A stretch of DNA of 34,906 bases from Pelomyxa schiedti. Taxonomy: Eukaryota > Protista > Evosea. A program made the translations under genes and the position numbers. The stretch is from the NCBI GenBank assembly GCA_020536535.1, contig JAHLWZ010000975.1, positions 1 to 34,906 of the forward strand, given 5' to 3'. Positions 1-34,906 of the stretch are shown piece after piece (positions within the stretch are counted from its first letter, which is position 1; each line of letters opens with the position of its first letter). A model generated the notes under the pieces. The model ran no database searches. It was given only the letters and a program-made list of their open reading frames with translations, and was not told where the DNA came from.

Positions 1-183
1 GGCCGAGGACTGTGATGCGCGTGACCACGGACCGGGATGACACCAATCCCTTGTGTTCGTGGCGCGACGCGACGCGGACCGCGGTTGTGGGATGCTGGGA
101 GCCTGCGTTGGGTGGGTCCGGCCGGACCACCCGATGGGTTCCCGGTGAACTCCTCCCATCTTTTTTTGGTTTTTTTTTTTCAC
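1..183 (+). repeat. Copy 1 of a ~170-bp GC-rich dispersed repeat ending in a T-run (candidate Pol III small RNA or SINE). It is truncated or extended at the window edge.
   Basis: Positions 14-180 match 34193-34342 on the same strand and 32346-32540 as reverse complement. This is visible as shared ORF peptides MRVTTDRDDTNPLCSWRDATRTAVVGCWEP and MTPIPCVRGATRRGPRLWDAG. The copy ends in tttttttggttttttttttt at 161-180. A second shared module, cgtaatgccaacacacc..cgtcaacaa, lies at 238-270 and matches 34345-34372. Confidence 0.7.
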
Positions 184-574
184 TTGTGGGTCCTCATTCG
201 ATTGTTTGTTGGCTATCTCCACAGTGGACCAGATTACCGTAATGCCAACACACCTCCGTCAACAATGGAGCATTCCCACAGGTGGAGGTGGGTGTAGTTG
301 CTGTTTGATTGACGAGATTGTGATGGCACCGCCATCAAAGAAGTCCAGTTGAAATACCGCCGCCCATACCACGCCGTTGCTTCCCACAATCAAAACACCC
401 CCTACGGGAGCTTTCAGTAGATCATGGTGGCACATCCCTCCCCAAAGTACATTCGGGGAATGTCGTTGCAGAAGAATCACACTTCCGAGTTTACAGGAGA
501 AATACATTGGCACGACGAAAAAACCAAACGCGTTTTTTGGAAACGTAGAAAAACCAACAACAAAACCCCAGGGG

Positions 575-4141: not shown

Positions 4142-5771
4142 TTACATCCAAACAAATGCCAAAACAACAGCCAAAGAAACAACCCAAAGAGCCACAGTCA
4201 TGTGGAGACCCCACAATGACTGTCTTGGTACTGATAATCCCGTTGGGGTCTGGTTGTATCCCAACAGCTCAAATAGATACACTAGAGGCAGAAGCAGTAA
4301 CCTGACACAATACCTAGCCAGTGGGTGATGTGTAAGCCATAGTGCAAATGGTGGTGATGTGGCATAGTAGAGGTCTATGAATTTACGGCCCAGATAGTGG
4401 TTGTGTAGAGTTGTATCCCTGTTTGTTTTGTTTGTTATATGAAAAGACATGATTGATATAATTGAACCTGAAACGGCGAAGTGTGTTGATTCTTGGGTCT
4501 AGGGGTGACCCATAAGCAGCAGTGGCAATGAAGCAACCACCTCTTTTGGCTTTTTTCGCACTACATTTGTAGCTCATAGCCTGGGTGTGAAGAGAAAGTG
4601 ATTCCGGTGAATAATAAGAATCCTGCCCAAAGAGTAAGGAACGGATAGCGTAAGTATGTACTAACCTCAATTGTGGGGTCATATTCATCACAAAAAAGTG
4701 CTGCCCTCCTAAAAAAAAAAAAGGTAAGCAATGGCAGACAACATGGATGCAAGTACTTTGAAATACTCTCTATCTTCGCTGATTGTTCTTGCAGATCATC
4801 CATCACCGAGGAAGACGACGAAGTAGTGGTAGAACATTGTGGTGGAGGTGGAGGTGGAGCTGCTGCTGCAGAGCCAGATGGAGGCGGCGGCGGAGCGGAT
4901 TCAGATGGAGGAGGCATGTGTGAAGGTGTTGGTGTAGGTTGAGCTTGAGGTTTAGGTTGAGGTTGGGATTGAGGTGCAGGTGAAGGCTTGGGTGGAGCGG
5001 GGCTGGCAGCGGCACATGCCGCGGGGACTGGGATTGATCTCGCCATGTCCTTCTTTTGGTTCATGGCGCTTCCTGCTTTTCCTCTGCCTTTGGCATTCGA
5101 TTTCGGTGCTTCCTCACATTTAATGTCGCATTTCATGTCACATTTCATGTCACATTTTGGGGAATAGTCACATTTTTCCTCGCATTTCGATTTTTTCTTG
5201 GCTTTGTATTCGCGTTTAACGTCACACATCCCTGCTTCTTCTTTCATCTTGCTCAACCCTCTTGGAGCACCAGGAGCGCGACGGAACTCCATGTAATCAT
5301 CCTCCTCTTCACATTCTGAGTCAGAGCTGTCACTGGCACTGCCACTGCTGCTGCTACTCGACTTGCGTCTTTGCTTATATTTTTTTTTGCCACCACCCCA
5401 CGAGGAGCTTCTTGTATCAGCAGTTGTAGAGCCGCTGATTTGCCAATCTTTTTCCCATTGAGTGGTATTTTAGAATTCAAGGCCATACGAGGATTAGATG
5501 TGGACACTTTTCTAGATTTTTTGGTTTTTTTCCCTGGAGCCCAGTAATCAAACTCAGTGTGGTGGTAAGCCTTTGGGTACATTTTCCTAAGTCCATAATT
5601 AAAATGTGAATTTCCAGGCCGACCGTAGTACTACATTTCTCACCTGGATGAGACCACACTGACGGTGGTATTATAATGAACCTTCTTTATTTCCTTCCAG
5701 TTTGTGCAAAATGGAATTTCATCCACGCTTTCTGCTTTGTCTAACGTGGCAATAGGAGGTGTGGGTTTCAT
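4142..5771 (-). CDS. Low-complexity protein ending in a CFI-box-like C-terminal module plus a terminal hydrophobic helix. Regions are Ser-rich, acidic, KCDMKCDMKCDIKCEE repeats, and Pro-rich.
   Basis: The minus-strand model starts at ATG 5771. Exons are MKPTPPIATLDKAESVDEIPFCTNWKEIKKVHYNTTVSVVSSR | KMYPKAYHHTEFDYWAPGKKTKKSRKVSTSNP | HWQISGSTTADTRSSSWGGGKKKYKQRRKSSSSSSGSASDSSDSECEEEDDYMEFRRAPG...KCDMKCDMKCDIKCEE...PPPPPP...DDLQEQSAKIESISK...DEYDPTIE | DSYYSPESLSLHTQAMSYKCSAKKAKRGGCFIATAAYGSPLDPRINTLRRFR | DTTLHNHYLGRKFIDLYYATSPPFALWLTHHPLARYCVRLLLLPLVYLFELLGYNQTPT...ALWVVSLAVVLAFVWM stop (4142). Minus-strand introns are about 5617-5673, 5481-5522, 4623-4675 and 4419-4467. Confidence 0.55.
5124..5160. 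repeat. Tandem 12-bp coding repeat (gtcacatttcat, about 3 copies) encoding KCDMKCDMKCD on the minus strand.
   Basis: The sequence gtcgcatttcatgtcacatttcatgtcacattt lies within the CFI-box-protein gene. Confidence 0.8.
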
Positions 5772-26429: not shown

Positions 26430-26567
26430 AAGCTCGTTGTCAACAAACAAAGTTGAAGCACAGGAGGGGAGATAGTGGGGAGGAGGGGGAGGGGGAGGGG
26501 GGGGGAGGGAGTACCTCCTCCTTTACCCTCCTCCCCCTCCTCCCCAACCAAGCTCGTTGTCAACAAA
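26430..26567. repeat. Perfect G-rich/C-rich inverted repeat (hairpin with stems of about 33 nt centred on gtac at about 26510). It is flanked by 19-bp direct repeats caagctcgttgtcaacaaa (26430-26448 and 26549-26567).
   Basis: The sequence is ggggaggagggggagggggaggggggggaggga gtac ctcctcctttaccctcctccccctcctcccc. The G arm has 4 or more G-runs (G-quadruplex-capable). It lies 17 bp upstream of the proposed ATG of the NHL gene. Confidence 0.8.
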
Positions 26568-31620: not shown

Positions 31621-32211
31621 GTGGAACACACTGAGCTCCTTTTATTCCTCTTGTGCGATAGAAATGGCACATCATACTATGATTTGATTGAGTGGACCCT
31701 TACAGTCACAGTAAGTTCATTTATCTCTTCACCCCCCCCAAAACTCCTGTATCTCATCTCATTTCAAACGACAACACGCGAAAAACCCATCTTGCACACA
31801 CAACTGAAAACCAACAGCAAACAACAAACAACAAACAACAAACAAACAAACAAACAAGCTAACCAACCACAACACAAGCACCCGGAGACTGGCTCCACGC
31901 TGGCTCAACTGGACAGCATGTCACTGCGCCGGTTCGGCTCCAACAAGGTGTCTGTGTACTCTGACCCTGCGCTGCCCAACCTGCTCACCACCGCGACTTC
32001 GGCGGAGCTCCGGCCGTTCACGAGGCGTGACCACCGGGGATCGAGCAGGGACCTGTTCTGGGGTGTGTTCTCCAGGCTGCCGCAGGGCCTCGTGGTGTCT
32101 GCTGTGATACACATGCTGCCCCGCCCAGAGAGGGACAACTTGGTGGAGTTCCTGCACGCGTCACCTCACACCTGGACTGACGCTTTTGACGACGCGTATG
32201 GTGCACACTGA
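31621..32211 (+). CDS. Hypothetical small gene with a GC-rich terminal exon containing an F-box-like segment. It probably has 2 exons, with an intron holding a (CAAA)n microsatellite.
   Basis: The 5' exon reads MEHTELLLFLLCDRNGTSYYDLIEWTLTV (donor gtaagt at 31708). The GC-rich terminal exon reads ...HPETGSTLAQLDSMSLRRFGSNKVSVYSDPALPNLLTTATSAELRPFTRRDHRGSSRDLFWGVFSRLPQGLVVSAVIHMLPRPERDNLVEFLHASPHTWTDAFDDAYGAH stop at 32211. Confidence 0.3.
   Translation: MEHTELLLFLLCDRNGTSYYDLIEWTLTVTVSSFISSPPPKLLYLISFQTTTREKPILHTQLKTNSKQQTTNNKQTNKQANQPQHKHPETGSTLAQLDSMSLRRFGSNKVSVYSDPALPNLLTTATSAELRPFTRRDHRGSSRDLFWGVFSRLPQGLVVSAVIHMLPRPERDNLVEFLHASPHTWTDAFDDAYGAH
31815..31858. repeat. (CAAA)n / (ACAA)n microsatellite.
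   Basis: The sequence is caaacaacaaacaacaaacaacaaacaaacaaacaaacaa. Confidence 0.9.
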
Positions 32212-32345
32212 TGTGTTGGTGAATGTGAATCGACTTCAAAAGAAAAAGAGATTGGTTGTGGCTAAAAAACAACAGGAAATTGGAGCAAGATAGAGTGATA
32301 CGGCCGGACAAACAGTACAACATGCGTAGCGCGGTGCAGGGGAAA

Positions 32346-32540
32346 CAACATGGGTTGAAAAAAAAAAAAACCAAAAAAAGATGGGAGGTGTTCACCGGGA
32401 ACCCAGGGTGGTCCGGCCGGACCCACCAACACAGGCTCCCAGCATCCCACAACCGCGGTCCGCGTCGCGTCGCGCCACGAACACAAGGGATTGGTGTCAT
32501 CCCGGTCCGTGGTCACGCGCATCACAGTCCTCGGCCCCAA
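32346..32540 (-). repeat. Copy 2 (inverted orientation) of the ~170-bp GC-rich T-run-terminated dispersed repeat.
   Basis: The A-run at 32346-32368 is the complement of the T-run. 32372-32537 is the reverse complement of window positions 1-160 (cccggtccgtggtcacgcgcatcacagtcctcggcc = reverse complement of ggccgaggactgtgatgcgcgtgaccacggaccggg). It accounts for ORFs 32262-32558(-) and 32018-32500(-). Confidence 0.75.
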
Positions 32541-32687
32541 ATCCGCGTCGCGTCTCAATTCTCATTGAGCGCATCACAATTTCGGGGAAGCAGGATGTCA
32601 GTAAGTCATTCCAGGAATGAACGGTCAGGAGCCTCTTTTTGGTAATGGATCTTTCCATTTAATTGGCGCCCGGTCGGTTTTGTTGGG

Positions 32688-33016
32688 ATGTGCACTCAGT
32701 GCTGTTTTCTCCCATTTGGGAAATGCCGCCGGGGAGTGTTTTGGGAGAGTTCCCCGATGGGAGGGTTTGGGAGAATTTTGGGAGTGATTTGGGAGATCTA
32801 CTACCAGGCTCTGTCTGACTCAGCCGTTTGATCGTTCCCGAAATTGTTCTTGATTCTTTTGATAAGAAGTCAGTGCTGAGAAACGGGCAGACTGGGGATT
32901 GATGATCAAAAAGACTGAGGGAATCATTCTCCCCGAATTCTCCCCTCCCCTCCCAAAAACCTCCCATCGGGGAAAATCCCCGATGGTCGGGTTTTTTACA
33001 GCACTGTGTGCACTTC
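32688..33016. mobile_element. Foldback / MITE-like non-autonomous element. It has roughly 100-bp imperfect terminal inverted repeats, full of TGGGAG / CTCCCA motifs, around a roughly 110-bp core.
   Basis: The left terminus gtgcactcagtgctg (32688-) is the inverted complement of the right terminus cagcactgtgtgcac (-33016). The inner arm ttccccgatgggagggtttgggagaattttgggag (about 32745-32790) pairs with ctcccaaaaacctcccatcggggaaaatcccc (about 32950-32985). No ORF is present. Confidence 0.6.
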
Positions 33017-34192
33017 CCTCAACCAACCTGGTATCGCGTGCTCTATTTTTCTGCCGTGAATCTTACTGAGAACGCTAGATCCAACTCACGTTCCCCGATA
33101 TGGTTGTCCATTTCGGGCAGGTCCGATCTATGCCTCTCATCGAATGTACATGGATTTTCTCTCATTTTTTCCCCCCGTTTCGGTCCCGGCACCGGTTATG
33201 GGTTAAAAAAAGAAAGAAAGAAAGAAAAAAACACACAAACGAAAGTATGGGGTTGTGGTGCATGAAGTTATCCATGTCAATTTAGTCACAAATGGAGGAT
33301 GATCATAGAGGGAGGGGTCCTCTGTGCTCCCCTGGAAGCCCTTCACATTGCATTGCATACATGATGAACTGAGCAATATTAATTGCAGGGGGCAAGTTAG
33401 ACCTAGAAGCGAGTTTATGGTGTCTGCTGTGAGATTCCGGTTCTGTACCGCCAAGTTGCAGCAGCATCAATTGTTTCGGCGATGGTTAATTGCTTGCTCC
33501 TATCTGGCCTGAGACGGCTGTCAGTAGGAGGTAGGACGGATTGTTGTTGCTCGGTCGTAATGGCTTGAGGCATGTTAGACTTGGTATTGATTTTTATGTT
33601 GGCTAACCAAGAAGGTTTTGCTGACGACAACTTGTTGATCTTGAACCTACTATCAAGTGTGAGACTTGGTTTACAAATGAAAACCTACTTGGGGTGCACA
33701 GGCTCTGGAACAAAAGCTCACAAAAGTGTGGTCGCGCGTGGTCTCGTCCTGAGTAGTTACATGAACCCTGTGCCCAGTGTGACTCATTCCATTTCCCACT
33801 GAGCTCCATATTTCTTTCGCGTTGCTGGCATCGAATATTCCTCCTGATACTTGATATCTTCTTGATAATAAATCAGATTGCTGTGTCAAAGAATTGAAAT
33901 CTTACCAGCCAGCTGACAATCAGTCTTGTCAAAACGAACATTGGCATAATGTCAATCACCAGCAGAGGACCTAACTGTTGGGTGTCCCCAGATAACTGAA
34001 CCAAGAAGAAGGATCGATAATGCAACACCCAGCACTGGATTTTGCAAGTGAATTGAAACCAGTGTCATTCAACAACCTAGGGCCCTCATTTTTATGCACC
34101 GATGGCGACGACGATGGCGACGCCGACGTTGAGCAAGTTGTAGCAGGAATTAGAGTAGACGTCCCCAGCGGTGGCACTTCAGAAAACGCCAT

Positions 34193-34372
34193 GCACGTGA
34201 CCACGGACCGGATGACACCAATCCCTTGTGTTCGTGGCGCGACGCGACGCGACGCGGACCGCGGTTGTGGGATGCTGGGCGCCCGAGTTGGGTGGGTCCG
34301 GCCGCACCACCCCAATGGGTTCCATCTTTTTTTGGTTTTTTTATTCGTAATGCCAACACACCGTCAACAAGG
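34193..34372 (+). repeat. Copy 3 of the ~170-bp GC-rich repeat (with an internal 14-bp deletion) plus the shared downstream module.
   Basis: The sequence atgcacgtgaccacggaccggatgacaccaatcccttgtgttcgtggcgcgacgcgacgcgacgcggaccgcggttgtgggatgctggg...ccatctttttttggtttttttatt covers 34193-34343. The shared module cgtaatgccaacacaccgtcaacaa at 34345-34372 matches 238-270. Confidence 0.75.
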
Positions 34373-34595
34373 GAGCACGTAACCTCCAAAAGGAACTGCG
34401 CTGGCCTCCGCACACCACATAAGTCCTTAGTCAAGTCTGAGAGTTTTTGGTCTCAGTCAGTGAAAAACTCCAAAAACATGAAAATCTCTTTGTTTGTCTT
34501 TTGCCCGTTGATGGCACGTTGATTACGGGGAAAGAAAAGGGCCAAAGGTTTTTTTTTCCCCGGAGTTATGGAACATAAAGGTTGATTTGGTGGGG

Positions 34596-34906
34596 TTAAT
34601 CCTCGTCATCCCAGGCGTCGTCATCGTCCTCGTCGTCACTATCGGCGACGGCTATACGCCTGGCGAGAATTGCAGCAACACTGTTGGTTTGGGTATCCAC
34701 TTTCTTTTCAGGAAGGTTGCGTTCCGTTACGGATTTCAGCTGGATACCTTTACTGTAACAGAGTTAGGAAACGGAAAGACTGAAGGAACGAGGGCTTACG
34801 TGATGGAAGACAAAAGATCAGGAGGGACCGTGCTGCCAGGCGTGGACCTCGCACAAGGGGACCTGTATGCTCCCACTACCTTATTTTCAACTCTTAACCC
34901 CACTTA
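34596..34906 (-). CDS. 3' end (last two exons) of a gene running off the window. The C-terminus is ...AILARRIAVADSDDEDDDDAWDDED (acidic tail). Product not identified.
   Basis: The minus-strand translation is ...RSPCARSTPGSTVPPDLLSSI | (intron gtaagccc...tgttacag, about 34757-34803) | TKGIQLKSVTERNLPEKKVDTQTNSVAAILARRIAVADSDDEDDDDAWDDED. The stop codon is at 34596-34598, so coding ends at 34599. Confidence 0.35.

Follow-up and report, generated by a model that had tools for sequence, protein, structure and literature searches.

A GC-rich, non-coding repeat unit of approximately 165-180 bp was found in three copies, and in both orientations, on a 34,906-bp scaffold of Pelomyxa schiedti, an anaerobic amoeba; this complete scaffold is the window analyzed here. 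As it stands, the unit is an ordinary though unclassified dispersed repeat, for which "unclassified interspersed repeat" is the most fitting name. With a confidence a little short of even, it is read here as an uncharacterized interspersed non-coding family of P. schiedti, a short non-autonomous mobile element that would be copied via a structured RNA of the strand that carries its T-tract.

The repeat unit and its copies

The repeat was called by reading both ends of the window, by repeat detection, by short-word blastn, and by an nhmmer profile built from the three copies, and all of these approaches were concordant (Table 1). Only these three places in the window scored above noise with the profile (E-values of 1e-61, 6e-62, and 4e-52). 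Three copies of ~170 bp in two orientations had been described in a first-pass annotation of this DNA, and they were recovered with slightly shifted limits, at nhmmer E-values on the order of 1e-52 to 1e-62. Pairwise alignment of copies 1 and 2 revealed 2 substitutions and 3 gap columns (98.8% identity over aligned bases, 97.0% with gaps counted), and that of copies 1 and 3 revealed 7 substitutions and 23 gap columns (95.3% and 82.6%, respectively). Copies 2 and 3 are 81% identical when gaps are counted. The previously given figure of ~90% identity among the copies is a fair average, and the self-complementary, palindromic pieces ascribed to the unit are indeed present. Divergence is graded, amounting to 1.2% between copies 1 and 2, and to 4.7% plus indels between copies 1 and 3.

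Table 1. Positions of the repeat copies and of the associated sequence elements in the window
Feature	Position	Strand	Remarks
Copy 1	1-180	+	5′ side cut by the scaffold start; 3′ tract T7GGT11
Copy 2	32358-32536	-	T7GGT13 tract on its own strand
Copy 3	34191-34345	+	Five indels; T7GGT7ATT tract; 3′ hairpin damaged
Spacer, 57 nt	181-237	+	Between T-tract and module 2; copy 1 only
Module 2, copy 1 version	238-272	+	CGTAATGCCAACACACCTCCGTCAACAATGGAGCA; found by blastn, nhmmer, and alignment
Module 2, copy 3 version	34346-34377	+	Directly abuts the T-tract
Candidate partial unit pieces	32537-32590	-	Immediately upstream of copy 2: TGTGATGCGC, and GACGCGACGCGGA followed by TTTGGGG

Copy 3 is separated from copy 1 by three deletions, of 1 nt, of 15 nt, and of 1 nt in the T-tract, and by two insertions, a CGCGA slippage of 5 nt and a single nucleotide. 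Relative to copies 1 and 2, homology of copy 3 begins ~14 nt deeper into the unit, as though its 5′ side had been shortened. The substitutions between copies 1 and 3 were found to be unevenly distributed, with 0 of 78 at positions 20-98 and 5 of 47 at positions 99-160 (Fisher p = 0.0065). This distribution suggests that the copies did not diverge by simple neutral decay, and that the 5′ half of the unit may have been under constraint, or may have undergone gene conversion from the nearby copy 2. The unit is compositionally foreign to its surroundings, with a GC content of 68%, compared to 45-50% in the flanks, and a CpG observed/expected ratio of ~1.0, compared to 0.64 for the window.

Four of the six reading frames are open through the unit, and the translations of these four matched no Pfam family. 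An exhaustive search with the ATG-containing frame against 1.84 billion representative proteins found no Pelomyxa protein; its four chance matches were tandem-repeat ORFs from Mycena (a fungus) and from ENA metagenome records. The unit is non-coding, since none of the five indels of copy 3 was counted as a multiple of three, and since its translations match neither a Pfam family nor a Pelomyxa protein. A coding unit was rejected on the same grounds, and the coding conservation that had been raised as a possible objection to an RNA or SINE identity gave way, upon inspection, to out-of-frame indels and open frames free of Pfam matches. The conserved 21-25-mers of the unit had no match in metagenome contigs or in viral contigs; in prokaryotic genomes, they gave a single 21-mer match, in a Pyrinomonadaceae MAG with unrelated flanks, which was attributed to chance (~0.3 matches expected).

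The T-tract and the downstream module

Every copy carries a T7GGT(7-13) tract on its own strand, in which the last run consists of 11, 13, and 7 T residues in copies 1, 2, and 3, respectively, with ATT following in copy 3. Runs of at least seven T or A residues are common in the window (n = 39); nonetheless, the T7GG...T tract belongs to the conserved unit. The homology between copies 1 and 2 stops exactly at this tract of variable length.

A second conserved element, module 2, lies downstream of the tract in copies 1 and 3. Its two versions are identical in 31 of 35 aligned columns (88.6%, including one 3-nt gap), were matched by blastn with an E-value of 3e-5 and by nhmmer with an E-value of 1e-3, and are collinear with the unit in identical orientation. 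Module 2 ends with ...CGTCAACAAGGGAGCA, and it is missing after copy 2. The downstream module common to copies 1 and 3 had been noticed in the first-pass annotation, and the blastn match bears this out. The insertion of 55 bp that was said to precede it in copy 1 only was measured as 57 nt. This spacer, to which nothing else in the window is similar, is either an insertion in copy 1 or a deletion in copy 3.

The description of the unit as terminated by a T-run holds to the extent that a long T-tract is conserved in all copies, but homology resumes past the tract in two of the three. Since the homology of copies 1 and 3 continues beyond the T-tract into the 32-35 bp of module 2, the tract does not clearly mark where the element ends. 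It may instead be internal to a longer element.

Predicted RNA folding and Rfam searches

RNA folding was found to be strand-specific in two of the three copies. The T-tract strand of copy 1 (positions 14-167) was predicted to fold with an energy of −79.6 kcal/mol (z = −4.1), and 0 of 200 shuffled sequences were as good; the T-tract strand of copy 2 gave −71.1 kcal/mol (z = −2.6). In the same intervals, the opposite strands gave z-scores of +0.2 (copy 1) and +0.1 (copy 2). The T-tract strand of copy 3 folded no better than its shuffles (z = +0.6), and the differences among the copies shorten or break the 3′ hairpin. For the structured RNA proposed for the unit, the evidence is mixed: the folding potential is strong and strand-specific in copies 1 and 2, and no better than that of shuffles in copy 3.

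The predicted fold of copy 1 consists of 55 base pairs (36 G-C, 10 A-U, and 9 G·U), and contains no 1×1 mismatch. On the other strand, each of the nine G·U pairs is an A·C mismatch. Such strand asymmetry, as modeled, would be expected from selection acting on an RNA and not from selection acting on a DNA palindrome. RNAalifold identified no doubly changed pair among 43 consensus pairs, and gave a covariation term of +1.33, a result that has almost no power with three near-identical sequences. The strand asymmetry of the folding is the sole positive sign of a functional RNA.

A search of the whole window against Rfam 15 gave no match at the gathering score. When positions 1-400 and 32200-34600 were searched on both strands at E ≤ 10, only unrelated matches far below their gathering scores were obtained (E-values of 0.7-4.8). 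The sole sub-threshold match that touches a copy, Vax2os1_3, lies at the edge of copy 2 and scores 16.1 bits, where its gathering score is 50 (E = 2.8). The Rfam comparison recommended in the first-pass annotation was thereby carried out, and it assigned no family to the unit. Resemblances to the 3′ parts of U6/U6atac, to 5S, and to 7SL/Alu, seen by eye, were dismissed because the corresponding Rfam models do not score.

Pol III and SINE features

Neither an A box (TRGCNNAGTGG) nor a B box (GGTTCGANNCC), which would be spaced 25-60 nt apart in the 5′ head of a tRNA-derived SINE, was found within 2 mismatches in any copy, on either strand, in agreement with the earlier failure to find tRNA A/B boxes by eye. 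The SINE-Finder pattern RVTGG-N25-50-GTTCRA was missing from both strands, and ARAGORN detected no tRNA, tmRNA, or tRNA-like structure. No TATAWAW motif occurs within 60 nt upstream of the copies. The regions upstream of copies 2 and 3 have no motif in common, their local alignment score being 9, compared to a shuffle mean of 9.5.

Target-site duplications were looked for at copies 2 and 3, with either 3′ boundary, and none was found; the 5′ end of copy 1 lies off the contig. The longest word common to both flanks of copy 2 was 6 nt, a length equaled in 230 of 500 shuffles, and the flanks of copy 3 have no word of at least 6 nt in common. The unit is not filed as a SINE, because the tested defining features of SINEs fail. 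The first-pass annotation had proposed a Pol III small-RNA gene or a SINE: of this proposal, a non-coding dispersed repeat in both orientations with a T-tract and a strand-specific fold was retained, and the promoter boxes, target-site duplications, Rfam matches, and covariation were not. On the sequence of this single contig, the unit may or may not be a Pol III gene or SINE.

Genomic context

Copy 1 is positioned at the first base of the scaffold. The P. schiedti genome of 52.4 Mb is distributed over 5,337 scaffolds, obtained by SPAdes assembly of MDA-amplified single cells (PMC8887013), and a repeat analysis is absent from the paper that describes it (PMC8887013). The break at copy 1 is as expected of an assembler that fails to pass a multi-copy repeat, from which we infer that the copy number in the genome is high.

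All three copies fall outside recognizable exons. Copy 1 has the same orientation as an NT-C2 gene whose likely ATG (575) is found ~395 nt downstream of it. Copy 2 lies 147 nt past the stop codon (32209-32211) of a plus-strand gene, and copy 3 lies ~250 nt past the stop codon (34596-34598) of a minus-strand gene; each points towards the gene it follows. Copies 2 and 3 are inverted relative to each other and 1,654 bp apart, with their T/A-tracts facing outward. Within the scaffold, the flanks of the copies are unrelated, module 2 excepted.

The genes of the scaffold are ordinary, intron-containing, eukaryotic genes, among which NT-C2, NHL, F-box-like, and Peptidase_C15 (pyroglutamyl peptidase) domains were identified with Pfam. 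The pyroglutamyl-peptidase exon is 96% identical to the hypothetical protein Pelo_14976 [Pelomyxa schiedti]. The introns are very short (~45-50 nt, GT..AG), and exon-rich stretches reach 58-63% GC in 1-kb windows, compared to ~40% elsewhere. Long antisense ORFs (259-1410 on the minus strand and 377-1654 on the plus strand) overlap at the GC-rich first exon of the NT-C2 gene, where domain support is found on the plus strand only (NT-C2, E = 7e-13); the 383-aa minus-strand ORF over this exon is probably an artifact of a repetitive GC-rich codon structure. Where the NHL-repeat gene region begins (26476-26546), (GGGGAGG)n is followed after 5 nt by its complement, which makes a mirror-like purine/pyrimidine inverted repeat. 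The last exon of the minus-strand gene near copy 3 (34596-34760) ends with ...KGIQLKSVTERNLPEKK...SVAAILARRIAVADSDDEDDDDAWDDED*, and by eye it resembles the WH2-central-acidic (VCA) tail found in WASP/SCAR-family actin regulators; a 52-aa piece of this exon had no Pfam match.

The zone bracketed by copies 2 and 3 had been described as intergenic and 2.4 kb long. The latter value corresponds to the distance between the flanking stop codons, the gap between the copies being the 1,654 bp given above, and the zone is not purely intergenic, for it contains a minus-strand exon relic resembling oxysterol-binding proteins (OSBP). The exon-like ORFs of this relic span 33250-33900, the best of them 33418-33684, and contain the motif LPPTDSRLRPD, identical to that of yeast Osh3 (PDB 4ic4). 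Pfam Oxysterol_BP was matched with an E-value of 1.1e-4 at profile positions 284-320 of 368, so that seemingly just the C-terminal third of the domain is present, and the relic is probably a truncated gene or pseudogene. The zone also harbors a foldback, MITE-like inverted repeat (32685-33018), whose arms at ~32685-32800 and ~32897-33018 show piecewise complementarity of 81-91%. GGGAG/CTCCC motifs abound in it, a perfect hairpin of 10 bp is present (CCATCGGGGA/TCCCCGATGG), and just the 9-mer GATGGGAGG is common to it and the repeat unit.

The pieces immediately upstream of copy 2 (Table 1) may represent an internally deleted partial unit in tandem; a 13-mer blastn match between 66-78 and 32554-32542 supports their relationship to the unit, and is weak alone. 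About 50 nt downstream of the copy 2 T-tract (32292-32309), an 18-mer matches the central palindrome of the unit to 83%. Partial units may accordingly form a small cluster around copy 2; no single match is long enough to be significant by itself. A possible fourth relic (5500-5531) was non-significant, and is located in minus-strand coding-like sequence.

Origin of the repeat

The proposed mechanism for a mobile element is as follows. The element would be copied through an RNA from the T-tract strand, for which two hairpins are predicted, one at the 5′ side (unit positions ~17-70) and a long one at the 3′ side (~87-160). This RNA would end, at least sometimes, at the T7GGTn tract, and such termination is the proposed reason why the homology between copies 1 and 2 stops at a tract of variable length. 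Copy 3 would be an older member, 5′-shortened and indel-ridden, and the source locus or the element itself would, in some members, continue past the T-tract into module 2. An RNA-mediated, T-tract-terminated element fits the data because the copy 1-copy 2 homology ends sharply at the tract, because the tract varies in length, and because copy 3 looks shortened at its 5′ side. Also in favor of a mobile element are the occurrence of three copies in both orientations outside exons, the scaffold break at copy 1, the foreign base composition, the strand-asymmetric folding of copies 1 and 2, and the graded divergence. The presence of module 2 past the tract in copies 1 and 3 counts against independent insertions of such an element. 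Mobility is also argued against by the missing target-site duplications at copies 2 and 3, and by the missing A/B boxes, SINE-Finder pattern, upstream TATA, and common upstream motif. A tail that is T-rich rather than A-rich, and the uneven substitutions between copies 1 and 3 (p = 0.0065), likewise count against the mobile-element reading.

The main rival is a small gene family for a structured, ~150-nt non-coding RNA whose Pol III transcripts end at the T-tract. Copies 1 and 2 would then be functional or nearly so, copy 3 would be a pseudogene, and module 2 would derive from duplication of the locus at the DNA level. We consider this unlikely, even though several observations agree with it: the long T-tract is kept in all copies, the T-tract strand outperforms shuffles in copies 1 and 2 whereas the opposite strand does not, the copy 1 fold has 9 G·U pairs and no 1×1 mismatch, the 5′ 80 nt are substitution-free even in the damaged copy 3, and module 2 downstream of copies 1 and 3 fits duplicated loci. 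It is opposed by the lack of an Rfam match at E ≤ 10 on either strand, apart from the unrelated ones above, and by the lack of an internal A/B box, a TATA element, or an upstream motif common to copies 2 and 3. There are also 0 compensatory pairs, and the fold z-score worsens from −4.1 to −2.6 to +0.6 through copies 1, 2, and 3, while the contig break at copy 1 and the occurrence of three copies within 35 kb look more like a high-copy repeat. A related reading, which takes the unit for the gene of an undescribed, Archamoebae-specific structured Pol III RNA that has no canonical A/B or TATA elements, or for a retroposed derivative of that gene, is regarded as decidedly unlikely. Were it true, the unit would represent a new class of Pol III-dependent RNA or SINE head, derived from none of tRNA, 5S, or 7SL.

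The inverted arrangement of copies 2 and 3, 1,654 bp apart and with outward tracts, invites the view that the unit is the long terminal inverted repeat (TIR) of a DNA transposon. The two copies would bound a ~2-kb non-autonomous element (32358-34345) with captured host fragments inside (the foldback and the OSBP-like exon), and copy 1 would be the terminus of a second element with its body off the contig. The interior, which contains a host-gene relic (LPPTDSRLRPD, oxysterol-binding proteins) and no transposase, agrees with this view; so does the T-tract of copy 1, which likewise points away from the off-contig part of the unit, and the sharp copy 1-copy 2 boundary at the tract would be the element terminus. 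We nevertheless hold it to be improbable: direct reading shows no target-site duplication at 32357/34346, the supposed arms are 81% alike with gaps, compared to 97% for copy 2 and the distant copy 1, both copy 1 and copy 3 have module 2 beyond the supposed terminus, and strand-asymmetric G·U pairing is unexpected for a DNA-level inverted repeat. Repeat detection found no terminal inverted repeat in the unit itself. It is also very doubtful that the copies, with neither mobility nor RNA function, are leftovers of local segmental or inverted duplication with gene conversion, or are partly an artifact of MDA or assembly. MDA creates inverted chimeras. The assembly derives from MDA-amplified single cells (PMC8887013), copy 1 is an inverted near-copy of copy 2 at a contig end, and the substitution-free 5′ 80 nt of copy 3 could be a conversion tract from the nearby copy 2. 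The substitutions and indels between copies 1 and 2, however, argue that copy 1 is not a chimeric copy of the copy 2 molecule, and its order of unit, T-tract, and module 2 is mirrored independently by copy 3, which points to a natural arrangement; an MDA or assembly artifact is unlikely for copy 1. The homology blocks, moreover, are short (~180 bp) and have sharp ends, unlike those of segmental duplications.

Other elements were considered and rejected. A giant 32-kb TIR element spanning copies 1 and 2 was dismissed on account of its interior, which consists of the ordinary intron-containing NT-C2, pyroglutamyl peptidase, NHL, and F-box genes. By eye, no CTRR end of a Helitron was seen, and no TG...CA of a solo LTR with a target-site duplication consistent across the copies.

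Significance and comparison with known systems

To our knowledge, no repeats of Pelomyxa, or of free-living Archamoebae generally, have been described. A defined high-copy element would aid repeat-masking and gene prediction in a fragmented single-cell assembly whose scaffolds it appears to break, and, on the lineage that led to Entamoeba, the unit could act as a marker of genome dynamics. Should the RNA-gene or novel-SINE interpretation prove right, it would add a Pol III-type transcript that has none of the usual promoter boxes.

Like the Pol III RNAs (U6, 7SL, RNase P/MRP, vault, and Y), the unit has a predicted compact, GC-rich, structured product of ~150 nt, followed by a long T-tract. 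Unlike them, it has no Rfam match, no conserved TATA/PSE-like element, and no internal boxes, and its copies differ by structure-damaging indels. The inverted pair formed by copies 2 and 3 around a ~1.65-kb interior with a host-gene fragment is reminiscent of MITEs and Pack-MULE-like long-TIR elements, from which it differs in that there is no target-site duplication, that the arms are less alike than copies 2 and 1, and that terminal inverted repeats are missing from the unit itself.

SINEs with T-rich, Pol III terminator-like tails exist, such as the plant Au-type SINEs. The unit is like these T-tailed SINEs in its ~170-bp length, its occurrence in both orientations, its variable T-rich 3′ tract, its one 5′-shortened copy, and its GC-rich structured 5′ part. 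It is unlike them in having no A/B boxes, SINE-Finder pattern, or target-site duplications, and in its homology past the tail in two of the three copies. By analogy, T-tailed SINEs may be taken as the nearest functional counterpart of the unit.

The nearest phylogenetic relatives with described repeats are found in Entamoeba. EhSINE1-3 of Entamoeba histolytica are the only well-studied non-autonomous repeats in Archamoebae (PMC2996970). EhSINE1 is 450-680 bp long, contains internal repeats of 26-27 bp, is flanked by target-site duplications, and gives rise to polyadenylated transcripts; it inserts preferentially next to T-rich stretches of 15-20 nt (PMC2996970). The P. schiedti unit differs from the EhSINEs in its ~170-bp length, in a T-tract that lies within the repeat at the 3′ side, and in that no target-site duplications were seen; in anatomy, the two are clearly distinct. 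They are alike in being non-coding and interspersed, in belonging to the same major lineage, in their unclear promoter boxes, and in their association with T-rich tracts.
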